Shown: positions 254 through 20,806 of the stretch, piece by piece
How the letters are laid out: each line of letters opens with the position of its first letter
Position numbering within the stretch: position 1 is the first letter of the stretch
DNA from: an uncultured Bacillota bacterium
Lineage (GTDB): Bacteria; Sysuimicrobiota; Sysuimicrobiia; Sysuimicrobiales; Segetimicrobiaceae
NCBI GenBank assembly: GCA_963787105.1
Contig: CAWBBU010000010.1
Span: 4,017-68,016, forward strand
DNA: 64,000 nt
Reading direction: 5' to 3'
The notes under the pieces: generated by a model
Databases searched by the model: none
Seen by the model: only the letters and a program-made list of their open reading frames with translations
Told to the model about the DNA's origin: nothing
Program-made: the position numbers and the translations under genes

Positions 254-1000
254 CTACATCCCCTTTCGGTCGTTGCCGAAGAACCCCACCTGCGTCACCG
301 ACTTGTGCGCCGACGTGATCGTGACGTCGAGCTTCTGCTCGTCCGCGGTGAAGAGCAGCTTGATGCCGGGGAAGCCGAGCATGTTCCAGCCGACGAAGTT
401 GGCGTTGCCGCCGTAGTAGGGATCGCTGAACATGCCCTCCAGCGTGTGCTGGCGAATCAGGTTGAAGAAGGTCTTGGAGTCCGGCGTGAACCCGGTCGCG
501 GAGTTCGCCTGCATGGCGGTGAGAACGGCGTCCTGCGCGGCTGAGCTCAGGCTGGCAAAGGCCCCGCCGTGGGCGGTCTCCGCGTACGCGTCGAGTGCTT
601 GAAGGCCGGCGCGGTAGGCGTCGGTCAAGTCGCTGCCGGGGTTGTTTACGCCGCGGTAGGTGTTGGCCGGGGTCGTCAGCAGCCGGTCGATATAGCGCCA
701 GACGAGTGCGTCTTTGGCCCCCGGGCCGTTGTCGTCGCTGGGGACCAGCCGCTCGACCACGGCCTCGACCGTCCGGGCCTGATCCGGCGTGAAGAAGATC
801 AGCGGCTCCAAGATGCTCGGCGCCGTGGCGCCATACGCCGCGAGTACGCCGCCGGGCAGCGCGACCAGTACGCCCGCCGCCGCACCCCGCCTGATGAGTT
901 CCCGGCGCGAGCCCCTCCAGTGCGTCACGTTCGCTCCCACGGGCGAGCGAGCACTCAACGCTTCGGACTTCGACTGGGCCGAATCCTCGCGGTTCCTCAC
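254..1000 (-). CDS. gluconate 2-dehydrogenase subunit 3 family protein (Tat-exported small subunit of a GMC dehydrogenase)
   Basis: 248-aa ORF with GTG start preceded by GAGGAGGAG. Twin-arginine signal SRRELIRRGAAAGVLVAL, and the body matches the subunit-3 family (FFTPDQARTVEAVVERLVP, DPYYGGN). Directly upstream of the GMC flavoprotein gene. Confidence 0.75.
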   Translation of the reverse strand: MRNREDSAQSKSEALSARSPVGANVTHWRGSRRELIRRGAAAGVLVALPGGVLAAYGATAPSILEPLIFFTPDQARTVEAVVERLVPSDDNGPGAKDALVWRYIDRLLTTPANTYRGVNNPGSDLTDAYRAGLQALDAYAETAHGGAFASLSSAAQDAVLTAMQANSATGFTPDSKTFFNLIRQHTLEGMFSDPYYGGNANFVGWNMLGFPGIKLLFTADEQKLDVTITSAHKSVTQVGFFGNDRKGM

Positions 1001-1092
1001 GTCTCCTCCTCATCACGGTTCACGGCCGCTTCCGTCACGGCTTACCGTTCATTGGCGATCTTGCGCATACTCGTCGGGGTGCTCCTCAACAC

Positions 1093-1170
1093 TGCCTGAT
1101 CGGAGGCTCGTTGACATCGTCGGAAGCGGCATCACGGGATTGGATTGCCTGAAGCGGCAGCGTGGATCTC
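1093..1170 (-). promoter_or_regulatory. conserved leader element, copy A (candidate structured 5' UTR RNA)
   Basis: RNA sense: GAGAUCCACGCUGCCGCUUCAGGCAAUCCAAUCCCGUGAUGCCGCUUCCGACGAUGUCAACGAGCCUCCGAUCAGGCA. Lies about 95 nt upstream of the 254..1000 start codon. One of five homologous copies. Confidence 0.55.
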
Positions 1171-1315
1171 ACAGCGCGTCGTCCGCACCGTTCGATTAGT
1201 AGGACCCGGCCGCGGTAAGGACGGGGCGGGAATCGGCAGACCACTCGATGTGAGGATCGTCCAGATCACGTCCGATGCCGTGCTGAGAGAGGACCAGTTC
1301 CAACTCCACAACGAT

Positions 1316-1564
1316 CTAATCCAGGGCGGCCGTTATCCGCGCCTGCTCGATCACAATACGCTGCTCCTGCTCGCTCAGTGGGCGATGCCGCACCCGCACC
1401 AGGTCAGCCAGAAGCGCATATTCCTCAGGCGTCCATTCCGTTCCAATCTCGTCCAAGTACGGTTGCACGAGTTCATCCGCCGTCGGCGTCGCGCTTGTCC
1501 CGACGGGCCGGGCAGAACTCCCTGCTTCGGACGTCGACTCGGCCGAATCCTCGCGGTTCCTCAT
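1316..1564 (-). CDS. hypothetical 82-aa protein
   Basis: ATG start preceded by GAGGAGGAG. Acidic, non-repetitive sequence (ELVQPYLDEIGTEWTPEEYALLADL). Shares the leader and the first ~24 codons (MRNREDSA...) with the 254..1000 gene. No family recognised. Confidence 0.5.
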   Translation of the reverse strand: MRNREDSAESTSEAGSSARPVGTSATPTADELVQPYLDEIGTEWTPEEYALLADLVRVRHRPLSEQEQRIVIEQARITAALD

Positions 1565-1656
1565 GTCTCCTCCTCATCACGGCTCACGGCCGTTTCCGTC
1601 ACGGCTCACCAGTCATTGGCGATCGTTCGCGTACTCGTCGGAGCGCTCCTCAACAC

Positions 1657-1735
1657 TGCCTGATTCGAGGGCCCGTTGGCATCGTCCGAAGCGGCATCAC
1701 GGGATTGGATTGCCTCAAGAGGCAGCGTGGATCTC
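1657..1735 (-). promoter_or_regulatory. conserved leader element, copy B
   Basis: GAGAUCCACGCUGCCUCUUGAGGCAAUCCAAUCCCGUGAUGCCGCUUCGGACGAUGCCAACGGGCCCUCGAAUCAGGCA, upstream of the 82-aa ORF. Part of a ~235-bp duplication with copy A. Confidence 0.55.
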
Positions 1736-1924
1736 CGGCTCCACAGGCAGTAACACACCCGGCAGTCTTCGCGTAATCAAGGAGCTGATGTCATCGATGG
1801 CACCCTTGTGGAGATCCCGCGAGCGACACGAATCTTCGTGCCCTGCGACCGCGTGCGTCACGGAGGTCTGACCGACGGGATCAGCACTGGTGTCATCCTC
1901 CACGTGGGCGCGGTCTCCGGCCAG

Positions 1925-1970
1925 CCAAAACGCGACACAGCCGGGCGAGATCATCGCATCTCGCCCGGCT
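1925..1970 (-). terminator. probable intrinsic terminator after the small-peptide genes
   Basis: Perfect 13-bp stem agccgggcgagat / atctcgcccggct (1939-1951 with 1958-1970) and a 6-nt loop. On the minus-strand RNA it is followed by GUGUCGCGUUUUGG. About 55 nt downstream of the 2027 stop. Confidence 0.5.
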
Positions 1971-2026
1971 GTACCCTGTTGCGTGACCGCGCGTCCGCGT
2001 GCGCGGCCGCGAGCTACTCGAACCGG

Positions 2027-2224
2027 TTACCGGCCGTTGCCGTCACCCTGCGCGTTACCGATCTCAACAGCTGGAATCTGGGTAACGCTGCCCATCGCGG
2101 TGCCGATTCCGTTGCCGTTGCTCCGATCGTCCTGAGCCAGCGCGGCTCCGGACGTCATGGCCACGACGGTCCCGACCGTCAATACTGCCAGCACGCCATA
2201 CAGTGCCTTCACTACACACTTCAT
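2027..2224 (-). CDS. small secreted protein (65 aa, signal peptide, Gly/Asn-rich)
   Basis: ATG preceded by GGAGGAG. N-terminal hydrophobic signal MKCVVKALYGVLAVLTVGTVVAMTSGAALA, then a polar G/N/D-rich tail. No family recognised. Confidence 0.55.
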   Translation of the reverse strand: MKCVVKALYGVLAVLTVGTVVAMTSGAALAQDDRSNGNGIGTAMGSVTQIPAVEIGNAQGDGNGR

Positions 2225-2326
2225 TGCGATCTCCTCCTCTGGTGGTTCATCATCATTCTCAGTGACGTGACGAACCCCAAGCTGCGTACCGCGAATACCA
2301 CCCCATCACTGCGCGCGGTCTAGTTC

Positions 2327-2507
2327 TTACTGTGCTCCCCGATCGGGGACCAGCTGCGTTCCCTGCGGGTCGACCCAACTGCAGTTCTGACCGCCAGTCT
2401 GAGTCATCATCGCCTGAGGGACGCTGGTGATCTCGTTGGCGAAAGCCGCGGGACGCGCTTACGATGAGGGCTTCGCCCATCAACACGACCGCGGGAATCT
2501 TACGCAC
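2327..2507 (-). pseudogene. small secreted peptide, apparently split by a 1-nt indel in a TTT run
   Basis: GTG at 2505-2507 sits 10 nt after AAGGAG and gives the signal-like MRKIPAVVLMGEALIVSASRGF. Dropping one T in GGCTTTCGCC continues as ANEITSVPQAMMTQTGGQNCSWVDPQGTQLVPDRGAQ* (stop 2327-2329). The uninterrupted 82-aa ORF 2259..2507 turns Arg-rich and implausible after that point. Confidence 0.35.
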
Positions 2508-2567
2508 GGCGGGTCATCTCCTTTCATCGCAGTTCAGAGGCCGCGAAGTCTCTGTTGTTTTAAGACT

Positions 2568-2645
2568 TGCCTGATCGGAGGCCCGTTGACGTCGTCGGAA
2601 ACGGCATGACGGGATTGGATTGCCTACAGAGGCACCGTGGATCCC
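2568..2645 (-). promoter_or_regulatory. conserved leader element, copy C
   Basis: GGGAUCCACGGUGCCUCUGUAGGCAAUCCAAUCCCGUCAUGCCGUUUCCGACGACGUCAACGGGCCUCCGAUCAGGCA, about 60 nt upstream of the small-peptide start. Confidence 0.55.
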
Positions 2646-2894
2646 CGGTCTCGCGATCGGCTGGATCGGTGATGCACCAGGACTACAACGGCGTGGGCCA
2701 TGGGTCCATTCAATCCGGGCTGCTGAATGCTCGGAGCGGGCGGCAAAGCGCAGTAAGACGCCACTGGGGGTTCATAGCCCCGAGCAACAAATGGCGGCCA
2801 TAACTTCCGGCGGTACCGGGAAACCTAGGAGGTGATGGCGAGGCGGTTGATCACGACCCGTCCCCGCGCGCTGCGTGCCTCCCGAGGGCAGGAC

Positions 2895-5436
2895 TCAGAG
2901 GAGTCCGCGTTGGATTGCGACGACGGCGGCATGCGCGCGATTATCGACCCCCAATTTATTCATCGCCGAGGTCAGGTGCGCTCTTACTGTGCGGTCGGCA
3001 ATCGCGAGGGCGGTGGCAATCTGCTTATTCGGCAGGCCCTCGGCGATGAGGCGCAGGACCGCTTGCTCGCGATCGCTGAGGACCGACGGCGACTCCGCAG
3101 TCCCGGTGGCGGCGGTCCGCGGCCTCATGGGCGTGCGCGGCTTGAGCGCGGCCCGCGCGAGGTTGACCGCATCCTCCGCGGAGAGCGCGTGTCCCTCCGC
3201 GACCGCCGTGTCGTACGCCGAGTCCCCCATTTGGTGGCGTGCGCGGGCAGTGATGCCCTGTTGGGCCGCGCTCCCAAAAGGAAAGGCGCGACCCGCCCAT
3301 TCGCTCCGCGCGTCCGCTGCGGCCAGCAGGCGAACGGCGCGGTCGAAGGCGCCGCGGTACGCACTGACTAACGCGGCGGTGCTCACTGCCAGCCATAGCG
3401 CGCTAGTCTCGGTGACGTCTCGTGGGGACATCAACGCCGCCGCCGCCAGCGCGGCGGCTCCCGCATCATCCCGCCGCTTGAGCTTGATGTGGGCGAGATA
3501 GGCTCGAGATGGTCACCGCCACGCGCTTGGTGCCCACGATATGGCAGAGGTCCAGGCTCTCTGCGAAGGTGGCCTCGGCCCGGTCGAGATCTCCAAGACG
3601 CGTGCGCGCCACCCCCAACTGGACCAGCGTGAGCGCCTGCCACCGTAGATCTTGGCACTCACGGCAGAGGGCGAGGCTCCGTTCCAACAGCACCTCTGCG
3701 CCCCGAGCGTCGTCTTCGTTCGTGGCGAGCATGCCGAGGCGGGTAAGGGCACGAGCCGTCGCGGCCGGGTTACCGACGGCGAGCTCCATCGCGTGCTGCA
3801 AGAGCTTCCGGGCTGTTGGGAAGTCGCCCATCAAACCGACGAAGGTGCCGGCGCCCACCAGCGCTTTCGCGCGGAGCTGCGGCGGGCCGTCCGAGTTGAG
3901 TGCGAGGGCGTGCTCCAGCCACCGGCGTCCCTCACGCAGGTGCCCGCTTGCTAACCAGAAGTCAACGAGGGCACCGGCGAGGCGCAGACTGAGTTCGCCA
4001 TCGCCGCGCTCTCGCGGCCCACCGCAGCACCGTTCGGACGTTCTCATGCTCCTGCTCCATCCGGTGTATCCACGTCTGCTCCTCCGGACCCCACCACTCC
4101 GGGTCCGCGTGCTCCGCCAGAGCGAGGTAATAGGCGGCATGTCGCTGTCTCGTCGTATCCAGCTCACTGCTCGCCGCGAGCTGCTCCAGCGCGTACTCAC
4201 GGATCGTCTCCAGCATCCGGTACCGTCGATCCGCGCCGCCTCCTTCGGTCTGCACCAGGCTCTTCTCCACGAGCGACCCAAGCGTCTGCCAACAGGGGGC
4301 CCCCGGCATTCCGCCGCGGGACGATGGCCTCAGCGGCTTCCAGCGTCCAGCCGCCGGCAAACACCGCCAACTGCCGGAACAGCTCCTGCTCGTCCGCCGT
4401 CCAACAGCGTCATGGCTCCATGCGATCGCGTCGCGGAGGGTATGATGTCGAGGCGGGCACGTCGCGCGCCTCTTCCGTGGAGAGCAGCGCCGGCCCCTGT
4501 AATCGCGCCAACATCGCCAGCGGCGACAAGGCGTTACTGCGGGCTGCAGTCATCTGGATCGCCAAGGGTATCCCGTCGAGCCGGCGAAGCAGCTCGGCAA
4601 CGTGCGACCGCGTCCTCCGGTGTTGGGGCAAAGTCTCGGCTGGACCAATCTGGCCCGTTCCGAGAAACAGCGCCCCTGCCGGTGCCTGGGCGACGGCCTC
4701 GGGCGTGGGCCGCGGGGACGTGGGCACCGCGAGGCCCGCGAGGATAAGCCGATGTTCCAGGCGGAGATTCAACGGTTCGCGGCTCGTGACGAGCACGCGG
4801 AGGTGTGGGCAGATCGTGAGCAACTCGGCGATCCGGGTCGCGGCGGGCAGGACGTGCTCGAAGTTGTCCAGGACCAGCAGGAGGCGGCGGGACCGCAGGT
4901 ACGTGGTTACCTGCTCTCGGGGTGGGTGGGCGGCGGCGATCTCAAGCTCGCAGGGCCTGCGCGATGGTGGTGTCGATGTGCGTGGGGTCCTGGAGCGGCA
5001 CCAGATCGACAAACCGGACTCCATCGGAGAAGGTGCCTTCCATGCTGCGGGCCGCTGCGAGCGCGAGGCGGGTTTTGCCGACGCCGCCCGGCCCTAAGAT
5101 GGTGACGAGGCGTCCCGCATCATCGAGGAGGAGGTGGCGCAGGCTCTCCAGTTCTCGATCACGACCGATCAGGGGTGTCGGATCCAACAGGAGGCTAAAC
5201 GGCAAGGTGCCAGGAGTCCGCGGTGGCGTCCTTCGCAGCGTATCATGGGTCCCTCGACCTGGTTTGGGCATCCATCGCTCCGCAGACGACCGCGTGGGGA
5301 GTGGCGCAGTCTCGGGCACGGTACTTCTAGGGGAACGCGATAAAGGTGGCAGGTTCACTGCGGCGATGCGCCGGGGAGATTCCCCCTGGTCAAATACTAG
5401 CAAGCGACATGATCCCGGACAAGGGTGGTTTTTCAA
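2895..5436 (-). pseudogene. large ATP-dependent LuxR-family regulator (P-loop NTPase + TPR + C-terminal LuxR HTH), at least four frameshifts
   Basis: Consecutive minus-strand ORFs read as one protein. 4942..5436 has the Walker A (ILGPGGVGKTRLA). 4410..5024 has LLLVLDNFEH and RRLDGIPLAI. 3962..4360 and 3466..4281 are TPR-like. 2895..3434 has the LuxR HTH (LSDREQAVLRLIAEGLPNKQIATALAIADRTVRAHL). Confidence 0.7.
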
Positions 5437-5599
5437 GCGACATCATTCCCGGCCGCACCTGACCTTGCGGGATCGTGCCCGCGAGTGCGACCACTGGTAC
5501 AAGCGCCGCCGACAGTGAACTCCCGGCATCGACGGCGGTGCCCCGGAGCAGTTGGCGTGGCCGCGCGAAGCCACAGGAGTTCCGTGCCGAGAGGGGAGA

Positions 5600-5627
5600 T
5601 TGACGGGCACGCTACTCGGGCTACCGT
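5600..5627 (+). promoter_or_regulatory. candidate sigma70-type promoter in front of leader copy D
   Basis: TTGACG (5600-5605), 16-nt spacer, TACCGT (5622-5627). Resembles the three stronger TTGACN-N17-TACNAT sites in this window. The predicted start lies a few nt before copy D. Confidence 0.4.
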
Positions 5628-5637
5628 CATGCGCCGT

Positions 5638-5710
5638 GAGATCCGAGCGGCCTCTGTAGGCAATCGTGCGATGCCGCTTTGGACGATGTCAACGGACCTC
5701 GGATCAGACA
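5638..5710 (+). promoter_or_regulatory. conserved leader element, copy D
   Basis: GAGAUCCGAGCGGCCUCUGUAGGCAAUCGUGCGAUGCCGCUUUGGACGAUGUCAACGGACCUCGGAUCAGACA, 72 nt upstream of the peroxiredoxin-like ORF. It is 5 nt shorter than the other copies in the variable segment. Confidence 0.5.
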
Positions 5711-5781
5711 CTGTGGGCAGTACGATGAGGAAGACGCGTTGAGAACCCGACCGCGACACACGCTCCCTGAGCCCCGGCGCC

Positions 5782-6384
5782 GTGGCACCACCGATTGCAC
5801 TACCTGCGGGGTCTAGCCAGATCTGGGACCTGCAGGACCGCCGCGGACGGGCTGTCGTGGTCGCGTTCTGCCCGTTGGATTGGGAACCCGTCTCACCCCA
5901 CCAGCTGCGGCACTATAACGATGTGCTACCGCACTTGCGCAGCCTTGACGCCGAACTGGTCGCCATCTCAGTGGACAGCGTCTACTGCCACCAGGCGTTC
6001 AGGCGGGAAGTGGGGTTAGGGTTCCGCTTGCTGTCGGACGCGCAACCGCGAGGCGCGGTGGCCCGCTCGTATGGAGTGTACCGCCCCCAACAGGGACAGA
6101 GTGCGCGGGCGCTGTTCGTGATCAATGCCACTGGCGTCATTTCCTGGGGCTACGTGGCGCCGCCGATGGTGGACCCGGGCGTCGACGGGATGCTGACGGC
6201 CTTGGAGCGGTTGGCGCGGCACCGCGAAGGCCACAAAGAGGTCACGGCCCGGAGGGGCGCGATCGAGTGGCCCGAGGCTCGCGCCGCCCGCCAGTTGTCG
6301 ACCGGGCGAGGTCGAGCCTCGCGTGTGTTGGGATGCGGTGGCCACAACGGGGCGCGATCCAAGCACGGCGTTTGGCCGAGCTGA
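5782..6384 (+). CDS. peroxiredoxin-like (AhpC/TSA/Bcp fold) protein
   Basis: VVVAFCPLDWEPVSPHQL...AELVAISVDSVYCHQAF...FRLLSDAQPRGAVARSYGV...RALFVINATGVI follows the Bcp/Prx layout. GTG start with a weak RBS. The basic C-terminal ~45 aa may be spurious. Confidence 0.6.
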   Translation: MAPPIALPAGSSQIWDLQDRRGRAVVVAFCPLDWEPVSPHQLRHYNDVLPHLRSLDAELVAISVDSVYCHQAFRREVGLGFRLLSDAQPRGAVARSYGVYRPQQGQSARALFVINATGVISWGYVAPPMVDPGVDGMLTALERLARHREGHKEVTARRGAIEWPEARAARQLSTGRGRASRVLGCGGHNGARSKHGVWPS

Positions 6385-6395
6385 CGGTGCACCTT

Positions 6396-6473
6396 GGGAT
6401 CCACTCTGCCTCTTTAGGCAATCCGGGCTCGTGATGCCGCTTCGGACGATGTCGAGGGCCTGACGATCAGGCA
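6396..6473 (+). promoter_or_regulatory. conserved leader element, copy E
   Basis: GGGAUCCACUCUGCCUCUUUAGGCAAUCCGGGCUCGUGAUGCCGCUUCGGACGAUGUCGAGGGCCUGACGAUCAGGCA. Begins 12 nt after the Prx-like stop and ends 88 nt before the SPW gene start. Confidence 0.55.
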
Positions 6474-6561
6474 TTCTAACGGTGCACGGAAACGCTCGTC
6501 GGTGAGGGTGGGGCGGAAGGCAACCGGCGGGACGCGCAGGGATGAAAGGAAGTGAGTGTCC

Positions 6562-6924
6562 ATGATCTGGGCGAATGTCGTCAACGCACTGCTTGGCATT
6601 TGGTTCATCATTGCTCCATTTGTCCTAGGAGTGTCATCGTCCGTTGGAGAGGTGTGGACCAGTGTCATCGGCGGAATCATTCTGTTAGTTCTTGCCGGTT
6701 CTGCGGTGTCCAGTGATACGGCCAGACGGCAGGCCTGGATTCAGTACGTGAACGGACTTGTTGGCGTCTGGTTCATCCTGGCGCCGTGGATCCTCTCGAT
6801 GGCCACGAACGCAGGCGTGACGTGGACCTCGGTCATCGGAGGGCTCATCGCGCTCGTGCTTAGTGTGTGGCTTCTCACCGGGGCCATGTCCAGGGCCCCG
6901 GCGACTACCAGTTCTGTGCGCTAA
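6562..6924 (+). CDS. SPW repeat membrane protein
   Basis: Two repeats of a 2-TM unit with APF/APW motifs (LLGIWFIIAPFVLG and LVGVWFILAPWILS). The ATG at 6562 sits 9 nt after AAGGAAG; the track start at 6556 is too close to the SD. GC is visibly lower than in flanking genes. Confidence 0.7.
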   Translation: MIWANVVNALLGIWFIIAPFVLGVSSSVGEVWTSVIGGIILLVLAGSAVSSDTARRQAWIQYVNGLVGVWFILAPWILSMATNAGVTWTSVIGGLIALVLSVWLLTGAMSRAPATTSSVR

Positions 6925-7203
6925 AAGCCGCGGACCCTGGCCGCCTTCCGCCCCGTCAACTGGTCGAGCGCGGTCGAGCCCGACCATGTGTTACACGAAG
7001 ACGTCGGAGGGCCGACCGCAGTGTCGGCCGAGCCCGATCGGTCGTCCACCGCTCGTCGCTTGGCGGCGAACTCGAGGCGCACTCCGAAGACTACACGCAA
7101 GGCCGCTACTGGACGGTAAGCCATGATGGAACCGGCGGATGGCGGCACGCTCGGCACGCGCGTCGGCGCTCTGGTGGGCCGCAGTGGGAGGACTGAGTGA
7201 CGT

Positions 7204-7848
7204 ATGGAACGGCATGCCACACACGCTTCGCCCCTGGCTGTTGCAATCAACGGAAACGGGCGCTCCTCGGTCCGAGCGCGGGCGTCAATCCTGCGGCGCA
7301 CCGGCCTGATGTGGACGCTGACCCTGGCACTGGCAGGCTGGAGCGTCGCAGGAGTTGCGGTCCTCGGTGATGTGCAGGAGCATCATGTCGCGCGCCGCTT
7401 GGCCACTGCGGCCGGGTTGACCGCGCTCTCCGGGCCCGGCATCGACATTGTGCTCACCGACGCCCCCGGGGCGCTCTCATCGAGTGCAGATCCCAGCGCC
7501 GCGTTGGTGCAAGATGCAGACGTGGTATTGCTGAACATGACGTTGTGGTATGGCGGTGCGCGGGCGGTTGCCGTCAACGGAGCACGCATCAGCGCCCAGA
7601 GCACGATTGTGTCGTCTGGTCCGACCCTCCTGATTGACGGACGCCGAATGGTTGGGCCATTTCACGTGACGGCGATTGGCGACCCCGTGGTGCTCCTCGG
7701 AACGGTAGGGGCACGCGGCGGGATTCTTGACGGGCTGCGCCGAGATGGGCTTGGCGTGCGCGTCACCGCGAGTCGGGCCATGGTCGTGCCGGCCGGAACC
7801 GGTGACCAGTGGGACCCCGTCTCCTTACCATCCCCATCGCGCCTATAG
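7204..7848 (+). CDS. DUF881 domain-containing protein
   Basis: N-terminal TM segment followed by GPGIDIVLTD...VQDADVVLLNMTLWYGGARAVAVNGARISAQSTIVSSGPTLLIDGRRMVGPFHVTAIGDP, the DUF881 signature. Confidence 0.65.
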   Translation: MERHATHASPLAVAINGNGRSSVRARASILRRTGLMWTLTLALAGWSVAGVAVLGDVQEHHVARRLATAAGLTALSGPGIDIVLTDAPGALSSSADPSAALVQDADVVLLNMTLWYGGARAVAVNGARISAQSTIVSSGPTLLIDGRRMVGPFHVTAIGDPVVLLGTVGARGGILDGLRRDGLGVRVTASRAMVVPAGTGDQWDPVSLPSPSRL

Positions 7849-9468: not shown

Positions 9469-9545
9469 TGGTCGGGGAGGGGGGACTTGAACCCCCGGCC
9501 TCAGCGTCCCGAACGCTGCGCGCTACCAAGCTGCGCCACTCCCCG
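9469..9545 (-). tRNA. tRNA-Pro (anticodon CGG)
   Basis: Reverse complement CGGGGAGTGGCGCAGCTTGGTAGCGCGCAGCGTTCGGGACGCTGAGGCCGGGGGTTCAAGTCCCCCCTCCCCGACCA folds as a cloverleaf: 7-bp acceptor stem, anticodon loop UUCGGGA, GTTCAAGT T-loop and encoded CCA. Confidence 0.92.
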
Positions 9546-9787: not shown

Positions 9788-11038
9788 CTACCCCGAGTCC
9801 AGCCCGGCGACGCTCACGCTCAGCTTCAAGTGCGCGGCCAGCGCGAGGAACGTGAGCCGGCGTACGCGGGTATGGCTCAGCACCTGCCGATGATAAAAGA
9901 CCAACATCAAGGTGTAGGCTAAGACCCGAATCATGGTCAGCACCACCAATGCATGGCCGTGCTGCTGGTGGACCGCCAGATGCTTGAGGCCACATTCCTT
10001 GCTCAAGGTCTGGAACACTTCCGTGTCGATCCGCCACCGGCTCCGTCCCCACGCCGCCACCTGCGCGAGCGATACGAGCCCCGGGGTGAGATTCGTCGCG
10101 AACACGTTGCGGTGGAGAGTCTCCTGCAACACGGTGCGGGAGCGCCGGCGCCCTTCATCGTGGACGATGGTCCGCCGCGGCCGCTGCACGCGCTCCACCG
10201 TTTTCACCACCCGGATCGCCCGCTGTGCCGCCGGCCAATACACTTCCGGCAGGTCCCAGTGCTGCGCTTCCCGCCGGGCCCCGGCCGTCAATTGCGGCGG
10301 CCGCTGCACCGTCAGCCGCTCGACTTCTGCCAGCAACTCGGCTTGGTTCTCCTTCACGGTACACACCCACGACCAGCCCCACGTTTCCATCTGTGTCACA
10401 AACGGCGTGCTCAAATAGAGCGCGTCGCCGACCAGCACATCGAGAAACCGGGGCCCCAGCGCGGCCACGAGCGTCTCCAGCAATGCGCGGGCGCACTCCA
10501 CTTCGCCTTCGCCCTTGCGCTGAAACCGCACGCCCAACGGGATGGGAAACGGCGTGCTCACCACCGCGACGACCACCACGCGATGATAGTATTGCGTTTC
10601 CCGATGCCCGTGCCGGTCCACGAGGCGCTCCTGACACCGGTCACAACAGCGCACGGAGGAATGGCCCAACTCGATGCCGTCCACCGCCGCGACGATCAGC
10701 CCGCCGGCCGTCGGCGTACGCAGCAGCCCATTGCGCTTGAGCTGTCGCGCGACCGCACACCCAAGCGCGAACACCTCGTCCGGCCCCATGCGGTCTAAGA
10801 CATAGCGCACCGTGTCTTCACTGAGCGCCCCGATGCGGCGGGCCAGGGCGCCCGCGCCGCATTCCCACTCCAGCTGATGCACACTGCCAATCTGCAGCAC
10901 GGCGCCCATGAACACGGCCTCAAAGACTTTGGCGCACGGATGCTGCGACCGCTGGCGGGTATCCCGCAGTCGACGCACGCGCGCCGACCAATCGAAGACC
11001 TTCTCGAGGTACCGCGCAAACGAGCGGTACCCGCCCAT
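9788..11038 (-). CDS. DDE transposase (IS4/IS701-like, DDE_Tnp_1 type)
   Basis: Start MGGYRSFARYLEK overlaps the upstream ORF stop (TAATG). DDE landmarks are VAAVDGIELGH, LVGDALYLSTPFV and the YREK-type tail RWRIDTEVFQTLSKECGLKH. The track ORF 9788..11164 only adds a GC-rich N-terminal extension. Confidence 0.8.
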   Translation of the reverse strand: MGGYRSFARYLEKVFDWSARVRRLRDTRQRSQHPCAKVFEAVFMGAVLQIGSVHQLEWECGAGALARRIGALSEDTVRYVLDRMGPDEVFALGCAVARQLKRNGLLRTPTAGGLIVAAVDGIELGHSSVRCCDRCQERLVDRHGHRETQYYHRVVVVAVVSTPFPIPLGVRFQRKGEGEVECARALLETLVAALGPRFLDVLVGDALYLSTPFVTQMETWGWSWVCTVKENQAELLAEVERLTVQRPPQLTAGARREAQHWDLPEVYWPAAQRAIRVVKTVERVQRPRRTIVHDEGRRRSRTVLQETLHRNVFATNLTPGLVSLAQVAAWGRSRWRIDTEVFQTLSKECGLKHLAVHQQHGHALVVLTMIRVLAYTLMLVFYHRQVLSHTRVRRLTFLALAAHLKLSVSVAGLDSG

Positions 11039-11373
11039 TACGGCGGCGGCTCCTTCGCCGTGTTCCGGCGGACAAACTCGCGCACATTCAATTGACAGAT
11101 CTGCCCCAGCAGCGCCTGCGCGCGTTTGTGCATGGCGACCCGCTCGCGCACATACGCCGCCCACGCCGCCGGGACGTGGATCGCTTGGGGCTTCCCATCA
11201 ATCAGCAGCGACAAGCGGAAGCCATGATGCAGATGCACGCCATCCGCACACCGGCAATTGGGTTTGCCGCACCGGAAGTGCCGCTCGACGAATGAGCCGG
11301 GCAGCATCTCCCGCAACTCGCTCAGCTGCCGCACGAGATCGCCGCGCCGCTGCTTCGCCGGATCCCCCCGCAC
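11038..11373 (-). CDS. IS accessory protein with CGKPNCRC motif (DUF6788-like, from memory)
   Basis: 111-aa ORF immediately upstream of and overlapping the transposase start. Contains FRCGKPNCRCADG followed by HGFRLSLLIDGK. The family name is recalled, not verified. Confidence 0.55.
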   Translation of the reverse strand: MRGDPAKQRRGDLVRQLSELREMLPGSFVERHFRCGKPNCRCADGVHLHHGFRLSLLIDGKPQAIHVPAAWAAYVRERVAMHKRAQALLGQICQLNVREFVRRNTAKEPPP

Positions 11374-11561: not shown

Positions 11562-12985
11562 GTAGGCCAATGAATCTGTCACCGGCTAACGGGCCAATGA
11601 ATCTGTCACCCTGGGATCATGACCAGGGAGATGATCGTCATGAGCAAGAGAGAACAACACCGCGTACACGTGCTTACCCAGGTGCAACACGGGCGGCTTC
11701 ACGCTCCGGCGGCGGCCCAACTCCTCGGGCTCTCTCTGCGCCACCTCCGCCGGCTCTTGGCTCGGCTGCGTCAGCAAGGTCTCGGGGCGCTTACCCATGG
11801 GAACCGCGGTCGTCCCTCGCCGCGGCGCCTCAAAGAAGCGATCCGCAGCCGGGTGCTCACCCTCGCGCGCACGACCTATGCCGGTTTCAACGATCATCAC
11901 TTCACGGAAATGCTTGTGCGGCACGAAAGCCTGAAGCTGTCGCGCCGGACGGTCCAGCGTCTGCTCCGCGCCGCCGGGCTTGGCAGCCCACGCACCCGAC
12001 GCCCGCCCCGCCATCGGCGCCGGCGCGAACGGATGCCGCAAGCCGGCCTCCTCGTCCAGATGGACGGCAGCCACCATCCCTGGCTGGAGGACCGCGGACC
12101 CCGCTTGGTCCTCCTCGCAGCCATTGATGATGCGACCGGACGCGTCGTCGGGGCCATCTTCCGGCTCGAGGAGGACACGCACGGCTATCTGCTCCTCCTC
12201 CGCCAGCTCCTGCGCCGCTATGGCATCCCCGGGGCCATCTATACCGATCGCAACAGCATCTTTCGCGCGCCGACGCGGATGGAGCCCACACTGCAGGAGC
12301 AACTCGAGGGCCAGCGCGATCACACGCAGGTCGGCCGCGCGCTGACGGAACTGGGCATTCGGTGGATAGCAGCTCAATCGCCGCAGGCCAAGGGTCGTAT
12401 AGAACGGCTCTTTGGCACCTTTCAAGACCGCCTCGTCGCGGAACTCCGCCTCGCCCGCGCGTGCACCCTTACCGACGCGCAGCGCATCGTGGACCGCTTT
12501 CTCCCGCGCTACAATGCCCGCTTCGCACGCCGTCCTGCGGATCCCACGTCCGCCTGGCAGCTTGTCCCCGACGCGGCGACGCTCGAATCTATCTGCTGCC
12601 TCAAATCCCGGCGGACGGTCGCCAACGACAACACCGTACAGGTGGGAGATCGGCTGCTCCATCTCCGTCCCGGTCCCAGCGGCCGGAGCTATGCGCAGGC
12701 CCGCGTCGATGTCCACACGCGCCTCGATGGTACGCTTGCCGTCTATTATCAGGGCCAGCGCCTCACCGTGCGCCTCGGACGGCGGTCCGCGCGACCCACT
12801 CCCCCGCACACTCTCCGCGGCCGCACGCCACTACCCGCTCCTGCCATCCCCAAACCGCCCTCTGCGGTCGCCCCTCCCGCCACGCATCCATGGCGACGGT
12901 TTGGCTCGTTTGCCCGACGAAAGGAACCGCAAGACCCAGGGTGACATTTTCACAAACCGTTAGGGTGACAGGATCACTGGCCTAC
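11562..12985 (+). mobile_element. IS element with integrase-core (rve) transposase, ISNCY/IS481-like
   Basis: The terminal inverted repeat GTAGGCCAATGAATCTGTCACC (left) matches rc GTAGGCCAGTGATCCTGTCACC (right). Each end also has a second subterminal copy of ...TGTCACCCTGGG. Starts about 12 bp after the right end of the neighbouring IS. Confidence 0.75.
11619..12944 (+). CDS. IS transposase (HTH plus rve integrase catalytic core)
   Basis: 441 aa. N-terminal HTH (AAAQLLGLSLRHLRRLLARLRQQG). DDE core LVQMDGSHHPW ... AIYTDRNSIF ... QAKGRIERLFGTFQDRL. Confidence 0.85.
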   Translation: MTREMIVMSKREQHRVHVLTQVQHGRLHAPAAAQLLGLSLRHLRRLLARLRQQGLGALTHGNRGRPSPRRLKEAIRSRVLTLARTTYAGFNDHHFTEMLVRHESLKLSRRTVQRLLRAAGLGSPRTRRPPRHRRRRERMPQAGLLVQMDGSHHPWLEDRGPRLVLLAAIDDATGRVVGAIFRLEEDTHGYLLLLRQLLRRYGIPGAIYTDRNSIFRAPTRMEPTLQEQLEGQRDHTQVGRALTELGIRWIAAQSPQAKGRIERLFGTFQDRLVAELRLARACTLTDAQRIVDRFLPRYNARFARRPADPTSAWQLVPDAATLESICCLKSRRTVANDNTVQVGDRLLHLRPGPSGRSYAQARVDVHTRLDGTLAVYYQGQRLTVRLGRRSARPTPPHTLRGRTPLPAPAIPKPPSAVAPPATHPWRRFGSFARRKEPQDPG

Positions 12986-18847: not shown

Positions 18848-20806
18848 CTAGCTCTCGAGGACGTTCACCTTCGCCGGGTTCAACTTATCCATCTCGGCCC
18901 CGAAGTAGTACTTGTCCACGTGGTCCTTGCTGATCCGCGTCAGCGCCGTCTTCGGGAACATCGAGAGCAGCTTCCAGCCGAGCGTCAGCGAATCATCGAT
19001 CGACCGGTCCGCCCCGCCCTGGTTGATGAACTCCTGCTCGAACGCGTCCGCGAAGCGGAGGTACATGCGGTCGTTCTCCGTGAGGGCCTCCTCGCCGATG
19101 ATTGCCACCAGCCGTCGAAGATCCAGGCCCTGCGCGTACGCCGCGTACATCTGGTCGGCAACTTGCCGGTGGTCCGCGCGCGTGCGCCCCTTGCCGATAC
19201 CGTTGTTCATCAGCCGCGACAGGCTCGGCAGCGGGTTGATCGGCGGGAAAATGCCCTGCCGGTGCAACGGGCGGCTCAGCACGAGCTGGCCCTCGGTAAT
19301 GTAGCCGGTCAGGTCGGCGATCGGGTGCGTGATGTCGTCGTCCGGCATCGTCAAAATCGGCACCTGCGTGATCGTGCCCTTCTTGCCCTTCAACCGGCCC
19401 GCGCGCTCGTACAGGCTGGCCAAGTCGGTGTACATGTAGCCCGGATAACCGCGCCGGCCAGGGATTTCTTCGCGCGCGGCACCGATTTCACGAAGCGCTT
19501 CACAGTTCGACACGACAAGGCCATTTTCGATCAGAAAGTTGTGCGTGCCTTCGACCGTAAAATCGTAGACGTATCCGTCGTAGTGAATCGGCTCAATGCT
19601 CGTGATCGCATCCAGCACGTACTCCTCCGGACGGCGCCGTTCCAGAACCGCAACGGCCGTTGACGACCCGCCGGCGTGCCGGCTCGCCCCGACCACCGCC
19701 GAGGCCAGACCCGGCCCGGCGGCGTAGATACCGTTTCCGACGGCCAATTCGCCGGCCGGCGTCATGACCGGCCCGTCGGGGGTATCGATCAAGATCTTGT
19801 GGTCAGGCGTGGCCGAAAACTCCGACCCCGAGGCGGTCCGAATGCGCAGCATGCGACCGCGGTACCGGAGCTTCTGGACGTCAGTGATCGCGGCGGGCAC
19901 CGCCGCGCGGCCGTTCCACGACAGCACAGGTGGCAGCGACCCGAGATCGCACTCCCTCGCAACCACGCGGTCGACCAGCCCGCCGATGGCCGCGACCGTC
20001 CCGTCCGCGAGCAACACCTCGGTCTCCGGCGCGAGACAATAGTTCGTCATATCGGTCAGGATCACGAGCACCTGCATATCGAGCTCGTACGCCAGATACT
20101 CGGCGGTGGTCAGCGCCGCGCGCGGCGTCATCAACCGCTCGATCGTCGGGTCGTCCGCGAGGTTCATGAACACGACGCTGCGCGCGAGCGCCCCGGTGCT
20201 CTCGAACTCGTGGATGAAGAACGACGCCTCGCGCTGCGTGATCCCCATCGCGCCGAACACGACCGAAAACTGCTCCGCCTCGCCGAGCACCTTTGCCTGG
20301 CGGGTGATCTGCGCCGCGATCTCGTTCGCCGGCAGGCCGGCGCCCGAGAAGATCGGCAGCTTCTGTCCCCGCACGAGCGTGTTCATCACGTCGATCGTCG
20401 AGATGCCGGTCTGAATAAACTCCGCGGGCTTGTCCCGGGAGACCGGATTCATCGGAGCGCCCAGGACCGGCAGGCGCTTCTCGGGGATGATCGGCGGCAG
20501 CCCATCGATCGGATCGCCGAGTCCGTTGAAGCGGCGGCCGATCATCTCACGGCTGACCGCGATCCGGGCGACGTTCTCGCGCAGGCTGATCGAGGTCTTC
20601 GCGAGATCCATCCCGCGGGTCTCCTCGAACACCTGGATCACCGCGTTTTTGTCCGAGACTTCGATCACCTGGCCGCCGCGCACGCTGCCGTCCTGCACGT
20701 GGATCTCGACGATCGCGCCGTACGACAGGTCGCGCGCGCCCTCGACAAAGAGGAGCGGACCGGAGATGTAACTCACACTGGTGTAGCTCTTCGTCGCGAG
20801 GTTCAT
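18848..20806 (-). CDS. ntpB: V-type ATP synthase subunit B, containing an in-frame mini-intein
   Basis: 652 aa. The exteins total 474 aa ([18 protein letters not shown]..., [14 protein letters not shown], ...[11 protein letters not shown] | [28 protein letters not shown]...), interrupted by 178 aa. Confidence 0.9.
19505..20038 (-). other. class-1 mini-intein (178 aa, no homing-endonuclease domain) inside ntpB
   Basis: Starts [13 protein letters not shown] (block A, Cys1). Has SATPDH (block B TxxH) and [23 protein letters not shown] (blocks F/G, terminal Asn) followed by a +1 Cys. Removing it restores the conserved DMTNY-(C)EALREI junction. Confidence 0.85.

Follow-up and report, generated by a model that had tools for sequence, protein, structure and literature searches.

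A lineage-restricted non-coding element of ~95 nt repeated in sense orientation ahead of unrelated genes in an uncultured Bacillota bacterium

Why would a bacterium place the same conserved sequence, in the same orientation, ahead of one unrelated gene after another? The question is raised by a 64,000-nt stretch of DNA from an uncultured Bacillota bacterium (assembly GCA_963787105.1, contig CAWBBU010000010.1, positions 4,017 to 68,016 of the forward strand; GTDB phylum Sysuimicrobiota, family Segetimicrobiaceae), which we refer to at its full length as the window. An earlier reading of the sequence alone, here the original prediction, had noted between 1093 and 6473 five copies of a ~78-nt leader element with the look of a switching RNA. 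We find that the element is a real, selected, previously undescribed and lineage-restricted non-coding sequence of ~95 nt. As to how it works, the reading that we favor, tentatively and with slightly less than even confidence, is that of a lineage-restricted cis-acting leader or intercistronic RNA that would act within the transcript.

Five copies in the window and their counterparts elsewhere

All five copies are present where they had been placed, far above chance, by a repeat finder, pattern matching, nhmmer and a covariance model. The repeat finder groups the minus-strand segments 1093-1168, 1658-1733 and 2568-2643 into one direct family with 83-89% identity and reports the plus-strand segments 6380-6487 and 5661-5714 as inverted partners of that family. 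Two core patterns, ATGCCGYTTYSGACGAYGYC and GATCCNNNNNGCCNCTNNAGGCAATC, each match just these five sites with 0 mismatches, where 0.35 and 0.08 matches are expected by chance with 3 mismatches allowed. The nhmmer E-values of the five range from 7e-21 to 7e-27, and a covariance model run with its filters off over the 64 kb returned the same five and no further copy, leaving the other 57 kb empty. The copies lie around a large regulator gene and a peroxiredoxin-like (Prx-like) gene, and two related metagenomic loci, L164 and L167, carry counterparts of some of them:

1077-1173 (core 1093-1170), minus strand: copy A, long form; 88.4 bits with the covariance model, nhmmer 7e-27; 92 nt upstream of the GTG at 1000
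1641-1738 (core 1657-1735), minus strand: copy B, long form with one extra base; found by nhmmer and the covariance model; 92 nt upstream of the ATG at 1564
2552-2648 (core 2568-2645), minus strand: copy C, long form; downstream of the regulator gene on the same strand; L164 and L167 have a copy at the equivalent position
5635-5726 (core 5638-5710), plus strand: copy D, short form; between the divergently oriented regulator and Prx-like genes
6393-6489 (core 6396-6473), plus strand: copy E, long form; 12 nt past the stop of the Prx-like gene, ending 88 nt before the start of an SPW gene; same-position copies in L164 and L167

The observation that each copy points toward the next open reading frame (ORF), and that these ORFs are unrelated, is borne out for all five: copy A precedes a Gluconate_2-dh3 gene (PF13618), B an 82-aa ORF, C small ORFs, D the AhpC/TSA-like (Prx-like) gene and E the SPW gene. 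The genes after copy A had been called a GMC-dehydrogenase pair, of which the Gluconate_2-dh3 member is confirmed and the GMC partner is not: it is cut by the window edge and shows a dinucleotide-binding N-terminus only, below Pfam thresholds. Copies A and B are not independent, since both lie inside a 185-nt direct duplication (922-1106 versus 1486-1670, 84% identity) that spans the element, the leader and the first ~16 codons (MRNREDSA...). Because of this duplication, the 82-aa ORF is a chimera that starts like the Gluconate_2-dh3 gene. The short form of copy D is the form of every copy outside this genome; copy D also has an 8-bp closing stem, GATCCGAG/CTCGGATC, at 5640-5647/5698-5705, and weak homologues occur at its position in L164, L167, L169 and L170. 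On the antisense side of copy C, a terminator-like hairpin with a T-run (2535-2554, plus strand) faces the element and ends 13 nt before its 3′ end.

Beyond the window, four other metagenomic sources supplied six further strong copies, and we also found four weak ones. All are intergenic and sense-oriented; the six and the five in the window are the 11 strong copies referred to below. A metagenome scan with a 21-base gapped pattern matched 29 loci, of which only L142 and L132 hold true copies, the former (1197-1289, minus strand) before a cupin gene and the latter (1036-1128, minus strand) before a small Arg-rich ORF and a baeRF-like ORF. In L164, L166 and L167, whose Prx-like orthologues are 68-73% identical, strong copies occupy two places: the C position, after a 788-793-aa NB-ARC/TPR/GerE regulator, and the E position, after the Prx-like gene. 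Matches at the D position, before the Prx-like gene, are weak in L164/L165, L167, L169 and L170 (E 0.004 to 3.4 depending on the sequence searched), and all four share the sense orientation.

In the window and in the loci retrieved, each of the 11 strong copies is sense to the next ORF and none lies within a gene; where a start codon can be placed, it is 53-130 nt downstream of the element. The genes past the element vary between genomes, with SPW in one replaced by a putative Tat-type hydrolase in others (Abhydrolase_6 match E=0.007, below the Pfam threshold) and small peptides by a 423-aa protein or an alcohol dehydrogenase. In L164 and L167 the element has covariance-model E-values of 3e-19 to 2e-24, while the 80-nt flanks on either side are at random level (50-65% identity versus 59% for random 90-mers). 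Since the element stays highly significant between flanks of random-level identity, we conclude from the alignments that it is under purifying selection across genomes. The copies at equivalent positions in L164 and L167 likewise indicate that the regulator and the Prx-like gene form a conserved core that the element flanks.

The element matches no described RNA family. A search of Rfam had been proposed as a check, and no Rfam 15 family matches the copies or their homologues: at gathering thresholds the whole window yields tRNA only, at E<=10 no match falls on any copy in the region 900-7300 (riboswitch classes including TPP, cobalamin, SAM, FMN, glycine, c-di-GMP, ZTP, fluoride, guanidine, Moco and preQ1), and at E<=1 none falls on six homologous loci. 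Plasmid blastn gave no match, a scan of viral contigs gave 4 chance matches, none of them real, and the core sequence, looked for in the literature as a text string, occurs in none of the papers covered. A 20-mer core matched genome contigs at at least 119 chance loci, with no element among the matches listed, a result that is uninformative on presence in sequenced genomes. The loci of SPW homologues, the nearest of which are 61-64% identical, have no element. Within the species, the Logan contig L122 (99.4% identity) shows no change within copy A or B.

In another relative, L123 (JGI 3300079084; 1-1410 versus window 2388-1732, 94% identical), homology stops exactly at the 5′ edge of copy B. 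This bears on the alternative that the element is an intergenic repeat of the repetitive extragenic palindrome (REP), bacterial interspersed mosaic element (BIME) or miniature inverted-repeat transposable element (MITE) type, or a recombination hotspot, spread by transposition or gene conversion with little regulatory role, its orientation a product of cassette assembly. The element does resemble such repeats in being intergenic, modular (it and a second leader block, described below, occur jointly or singly) and located at synteny breakpoints. Likeness within the genome also exceeds likeness by position, window copies C and E being 74% identical to each other versus 62-66% to the L164/L167 copies, and a 5-nt insertion is present in A, B, C and E and missing from D. 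Gene content past the element changes while the regulator/Prx-like core stays, a tRNA-Pro gene and two transposase-like genes adjoin the cluster, and a perfect 9-nt direct repeat, ACGGTGCAC, brackets copy E at 6384-6392 and 6479-6487 (4/500 shuffles). However, we consider this origin highly improbable. Ten of the 11 strong copies show target-site-like flanking duplication at chance level only, an inverted-repeat search of four copies found no terminal inverted repeats in common, and there is no strong palindrome; a closing stem or target duplication is seen in D, E and L142 only and was rejected as a general feature. The five copies are clustered, with none in the other 57 kb of the window, and keep a strict orientation, intergenic placement and start distance, and orthologous positions are kept amid randomized flanks, which argues for selection over recent spread. 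The arms of ACGGTGCAC around copy E can also pair, GTGCAC being palindromic. As for L123, past the edge of copy B it differs from the window for ~270 nt, and homology returns only within the 3′-terminal third of the Gluconate_2-dh3 gene; the element coincides with a rearrangement breakpoint there.

Sequence anatomy and pairing within the element

The element proper, module 1, is ~95 nt long and has the consensus GAGAUCC-N4-7-UGCCU-N4-AGGCAAUC-loop-AUGCCGCUUYGGACGAUGUCRRCGGRCCUCCGAUCAGGCAGUGUWGAGG. A second conserved leader block, module 2 (GAGGWGCACUCCGAMGAGUAYRCGCAAGGCCGC...), follows it in A, B, L142 and L132. The module 2 sites in the window are:

1001-1092, minus strand: module 2 after copy A (GAGGWGCACTCCGAMGAGTAYRCGCAAGGCCGC...), aligned with B, L142, L132 and 7071-7136; holds GAGTAT, a possible sigmaB/F-like -10 candidate
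1565-1656, minus strand: module 2 after copy B, from the repeat finder and alignment
7071-7136, plus strand: module 2 alone, upstream of a DUF881 gene, from an inverted repeat (78% over 63 nt) and alignment; no module 1 match at this site

The segment between GGCAAUC and GAUGCC had been described as variable, with 9 nt in most copies and 4 nt in copy D. It does behave like a hairpin loop, with a length of 5, 9, 10 or 18 nt; the length difference corresponds to a tandem CAATC duplication in A, B and C, with copy E having the same 5-nt extra length in a different sequence. The 5-nt loop is that of copy D and all copies outside the window. Additionally, the D-position copies of L164 (~5150-5172) and L167 (~3415-3437) carry between AUGCC and GCUU a 23-nt insertion that folds into its own hairpin (AGCAUU-GGCA-AAUGCU). 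These 5-nt and 23-nt insertions sit exactly in or beside loops.

The stem that closes this loop, hairpin 2 (GGCA..UGCC), has 96% of its cells paired, and its outer pair, G:C in eight copies, is C:G in the other three, which are all from relatives (5/500 shuffles); L169, if homologous, has GCCAC..GUGGC there, with two more compensatory pairs. The hairpin upstream, hairpin 1 (UGCCU..AGGCA), had been singled out for a constant stem with a changing loop. The window copies preserve this stem, the relatives only in part: at each variable pair, 3 of 13 copies have lost the match, and hairpin 1 as a whole does no better than shuffles. Its compensatory changes are C:G to G:C in the C-position copy of L164, C:G to U:A in the D-position copy of L167 and U:A to C:G in L170. 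The proposal that the pairings are mutually exclusive holds up for the first two: hairpins 1 and 2 compete for one GGCA strand, and five copies carry a changed first base in this shared strand, in each of which one partner, and only one, is complementary to it. At least one of the competing pairings is kept in 13 of 13 copies (permutation p ~2e-4, or 9e-4 without near duplicates, uncorrected for kinship). The third proposed pairing, of the last two tetramers (UGCC:GGCA), is lost in relatives, and the last GGCA fits UGUC better.

Two further candidate helices lie in the 3′ part. CCUC pairs with a GAGG located 17 nt downstream, and the helix becomes UUUA:UAAA in the same columns of the C-position copy of L167. 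The second, UGUC:GRCA, was proposed by RNAalifold, has the pair types U:G, U:A and C:G and is broken in no copy at its variable pair. Together they could form a small H-type pseudoknot, a fold that the folding programs used cannot score. In a combined model of hairpin 2 and the pseudoknot, 87.9% of cells are paired versus 82.0 +/- 1.8 in shuffled alignments, and the covariation score is 0.245 versus 0.154 +/- 0.029; both values are exceeded by 0/500 shuffles, although in the tool's own trials such excesses arise in 5-25% of unconstrained alignments. A GCCU:AGGC hairpin and a GAGAUC:GAUGUC long-range helix were tried as well and are not preserved in relatives.

Several results weigh against an RNA that works through its fold. 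The folding energy of the strong copies is no better than that of shuffles (z -0.5 to +1.25 in 10 of 11; copy D alone has z -3.1), the consensus fold from RNAalifold reaches -4.9 kcal/mol for 7 sequences and, for 11, -3.7 kcal/mol with a near-zero covariation term, and an unbiased scan of all column pairs returns 3-4-bp helices only. The covariation of CCUC:GAGG comes mostly from one copy (three to four compensatory changes), with 27% of cells unpaired. The shuffle statistics are optimistic, because the structure was chosen after viewing the same sequences, the copies are related, and A/B and the E-position copies of L164 and L167 are near duplicates. Conservation is mostly of primary sequence, which would also fit a protein-bound DNA site. 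Finally, we found no conserved terminator and no platform that sequesters the Shine-Dalgarno (SD) sequence; full leaders fold differently from copy to copy and share no SD pairing. Altogether, a test for riboswitch-type multi-helix structure comes down to three short helices with some compensatory change among few independent sequences, and the evidence for RNA structure is modest.

The original prediction had gone further and likened the element to attenuators and riboswitch expression platforms. The competing hairpins of that reading stand; an expression platform does not. The downstream genes (Gluconate_2-dh3, AhpC/TSA-like, SPW, cupin, ADH_N, putative hydrolase, small peptides and unknowns) do not indicate a single ligand. 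A riboswitch or attenuator is possible, and the label goes beyond the evidence: it is unwarranted given the lack of an expression platform, of a coherent regulon and of robust multi-helix covariation. One comparison is with the small H-type pseudoknot riboswitches (preQ1-I/II, SAM-II/V, guanidine-III, fluoride), which the candidate ~35-nt 3′ domain (UGUC..CCUC..GRCA..GAGG) resembles in its two 4-bp stems and purine-rich GAGG end. It differs from them in having no Rfam match even at E<=10, in a GAGG with no start codon after it, the real SD lying 50-80 nt further, and in genes that indicate no ligand.

Transcription, coding capacity and mode of action

A TTGACG-N16-TACCGT promoter had been proposed just upstream of copy D (5600-5627, plus strand), which would have put the element at the extreme 5′ end of its mRNA. 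The motif is present in the sequence, yet it fails a promoter scan and lies in a window-specific ~95-nt stretch that has no counterpart in L164 or L167. The promoter scan finds no sigma-70 promoter at any copy. From ~110-160 nt upstream of the element's AUG to the next gene start, TANNNT is absent in 6 of 11 copies and the other five share no position; this scarcity of -10 motifs fits an element that is transcribed through. Sigma-54, extracytoplasmic function (ECF) and sigma-70 promoters inside the element were considered by eye, and their spacings do not appear to fit. The lineage does use extended -10-like promoters: all three genomes have a conserved TGCTAGTAT ahead of the regulator gene. 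It is read there on the minus strand of a conserved block (window 5394-5452, plus-strand coordinates; L164 ~5035-5080; L167 ~3290-3335), in which the window has a direct repeat, CAAGCGACAT(G/C)AT(T)CCCGG, at 5401-5418 and 5434-5452.

Every copy not at the D position whose upstream side is on the contig follows a co-directional ORF, and we found no terminator-like site between that ORF and the copy. Downstream of the window copies no terminator-like site is present in sense, and the L164 locus lacks such sites altogether. The only terminator-like U-run hairpin after any copy is in L167 (391-377, minus strand), ~20 nt past the C-position element and before the alcohol dehydrogenase gene, in a locus where ~3 such sites are expected by chance.

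Coding capacity was considered on both strands. In the sense direction the codon-position entropy is 4.7/6.1/4.0 at positions 1/2/3, the opposite of coding selection, and the frame of the element's AUG stops after 6 codons in the C-position copy of L167 and after 9 in copy E; indels displace it in B (1 nt) and in the copies at the D position (23 nt). Several copies have an open antisense frame, as 65% G+C would lead one to expect; it is rejected because the 5-nt, 1-nt and 23-nt indels break it, and its translation has no relative among 5.8 billion proteins. By these sequence tests the element is non-coding on both strands. A leader-peptide attenuator was rejected for the same absence of coding selection (entropy, early stops, frameshifts) and for the absence of a conserved terminator.

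The AUG itself has features that suggest a short regulatory upstream ORF (M-[P/R]-[L/I/V/F]-x-T-M...), whose start would be hidden by hairpin 2 and freed by hairpin 1. All 11 strong copies have it unchanged, as do those at the D position in L164 and L167, the only substitutes being UUG (L170) and GUG (L169), which are also start codons; its U and G sit in the 3′ strand of hairpin 2, and codon 3 is limited to Leu, Phe, Ile and Val. This explanation is barely credible given that entropy peaks at codon position 2 and is lowest at 3, that the frame is cut or shifted as described, and that no SD precedes the AUG, though the main genes have strong ones.

A DNA element is the main alternative, although still an unlikely one. 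In this case the sequence would be a promoter-proximal operator or upstream-activating array for the adjacent STAND/LuxR-type regulator (MalT/AfsR-like ATPase with a NarL/GerE-type helix-turn-helix), the flanking genes would be one regulon, and an alternative-sigma promoter would probably lie just downstream. The regulator gene is the constant neighbor, flanked by copies in the window, L164 and L167 and with a weak D-position match just downstream in L169, and its product carries a GerE DNA-binding domain. The predominance of primary-sequence conservation with no thermodynamic signal fits an operator, as does the short form GGCAAT-N6-ATGCC, a 17-bp imperfect palindrome of LuxR-type dimer size in which a symmetric half-site change would mimic covariation. 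A GRGTAY motif, which we take to resemble sigmaB/F-type -10 boxes, follows module 1 at a distance of 20 nt in A, B and L132 and of 46 nt in the E-position copy of L167, and at the former spacing would put the element at ~-37 to -115; most copies lack a sigma-70 -10, as in activator- or alternative-sigma-dependent promoters. The layout also recalls the target promoters of MalT-like STAND/LAL proteins, with a large ATPase-TPR-LuxR regulator beside several genes that have a common upstream sequence.

However, those promoters have several 10-bp boxes, whereas here we see an 80-95-nt block with variable block spacing and no box array. The element has neither an internal direct-repeat array nor a helical (10-11-bp) periodicity of conservation. 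The spacing of the palindrome arms (5, 9, 10 or 18 nt) differs by 4, 5 and 13 bp between copies, which disfavors a fixed-geometry dimer site, and in the copies at the D position the best-conserved block is interrupted by the 23-bp insertion. A DNA site offers no obvious reason for the triple compensatory change to UUUA:UAAA over a 17-nt gap, and GRGTAY is absent or differently spaced in most copies. Additionally, the window regulator is spread over at least 4 frames, yet all five copies retain the invariant blocks.

Under the favored reading, the element would sit in the transcript as the 5′ leader or an intercistronic segment of two divergent multi-gene transcription units. It would start with AUCC and the hairpin UGCCU-N4-AGGCA, which would compete with the GGCA-loop(5-18 nt)-UGCC hairpin for the shared GGCA strand. 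The nearly invariant and presumably unpaired GCUUYGGACGAUGUC that follows may be the recognition site of a trans-acting factor (protein, small RNA or ligand). In the 3′ domain, CCUC would pair with the downstream GAGG and, with UGUC:GRCA, form the small pseudoknot. The alternative pairings could then relay a signal to the expression of the next gene via translation, processing or read-through. A more ambitious version, which we judge quite unlikely, is that the element is a new class of sensor RNA, with a hairpin switch and a small pseudoknot that respond to a ligand or dedicated protein. Two divergent stress-type operons would have it ahead of every cistron, and it would be co-inherited with the regulator and the Cys-less Prx-like gene, so that transcriptional and post-transcriptional control would share one portable gene set.

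Comparative genomics of intergenic regions has yielded many orphan cis-regulatory RNA motifs, that is, candidate structured leaders without a known ligand. The element is like these in being a conserved sense sequence of 80-100 nt before unrelated genes, with narrow taxonomy, few compensated helices, variable loops and no family match. It differs in having helices of 4-5 bp only, no thermodynamic signal, several copies per cluster that lie mostly between co-directional genes, and a mixed regulon. Cis-acting RNAs also direct processive antitermination, as in phage HK022 put and EAR; the element is similar to them in length (~70-100 nt), in its proposed action in cis on the transcript, in being repeatable per unit and in standing always in sense ahead of long or multi-gene units, and differs in having no Rfam match and no sign of terminators further on for it to override.

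If it is a functional leader RNA, the element is a new uncharacterized regulatory motif from a poorly sampled, uncultured high-GC lineage. If it is an operator instead, it supplies a candidate recognition sequence and regulon for one uncharacterized large LuxR-type regulator; to our knowledge, many such regulators are uncharacterized and known targets are scarce. The unusual layout, with one element before each of several unrelated genes around a STAND/LuxR regulator, offers a natural reporter set together with a candidate partner protein. Either way it is one candidate among many orphan motifs, and no long-standing question is settled by it alone.

The regulator, the Prx-like gene and their surroundings

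The genes that the copies flank are the following:

254-1000, minus strand: Gluconate_2-dh3 subunit with a Tat-like N-terminus, after copy A, from a Pfam scan
1316-1564, minus strand: 82-aa ORF after copy B, its first residues duplicating those of the previous gene
2027-2224, minus strand: 65-aa signal-peptide-like ORF after copy C, from the ORF list; present in a protein collection with relatives at >=90% identity
2898-5271, minus strand: STAND (NB-ARC/AAA and TPR) regulator with a C-terminal LuxR/GerE helix-turn-helix; aligns to residues 5-792 of an intact 792-aa orthologue in at least 4 frames
5725-6384, plus strand: Prx-like gene with the catalytic Cys changed to Ser (DWEPVS), from PF00578 and orthologue sequences
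6562-6924, plus strand: SPW repeat membrane protein after copy E, from Pfam

The GerE domain of the regulator is most like those of VraR, NarL, DevR and ComA. Its orthologues (788-793 aa) are intact in L164, L167 and L169. In the window the gene is likely a pseudogene, since the remaining long window ORFs are intact; it could otherwise be an artefact of assembly indels. The Prx-like gene is also altered at its 5′ end, where an in-frame TGA (5740-5742) comes soon after the ancestral ATG at 5725, which leaves the GTG at 5782 as the next start. The N-terminus conserved in orthologues is still readable in frame from the ATG at 5725, broken by the TGA. Throughout this AhpC/TSA-like subfamily (P0083-P0094) Ser replaces the peroxidatic Cys (FYPADWEPVS), and linkage of the gene to the STAND/LuxR regulator holds in all four loci that include its upstream side.

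The cluster adjoins a tRNA-Pro(CGG) gene (9469-9545), a DDE transposase gene (9791-11164) and an insertion sequence-like helix-turn-helix gene (11619-12941), past which lie the core genes tpi, pgk, gap and those of a V-type ATPase. The G+C content is 0.61-0.67 at 1-10 kb and 0.66-0.74 in most of the remaining window. The nearby tRNA-Pro and transposase-like genes and the slightly lower G+C suggest that the cluster is in a variable island. An integron attC site was considered here and rejected: for the R''/R' core sites (RYYYAAC / GTTRRRY) expected at both ends, inspection by eye shows only GTCAAC..GTTGAG, in A and B alone, no integrase-like domain occurs among 10 genes scanned near the cluster, and the copies are on both strands. 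Further along the window, a V/A-type ATPase subunit gene (18851-20806, minus strand) holds an intein splicing domain (PF14890).

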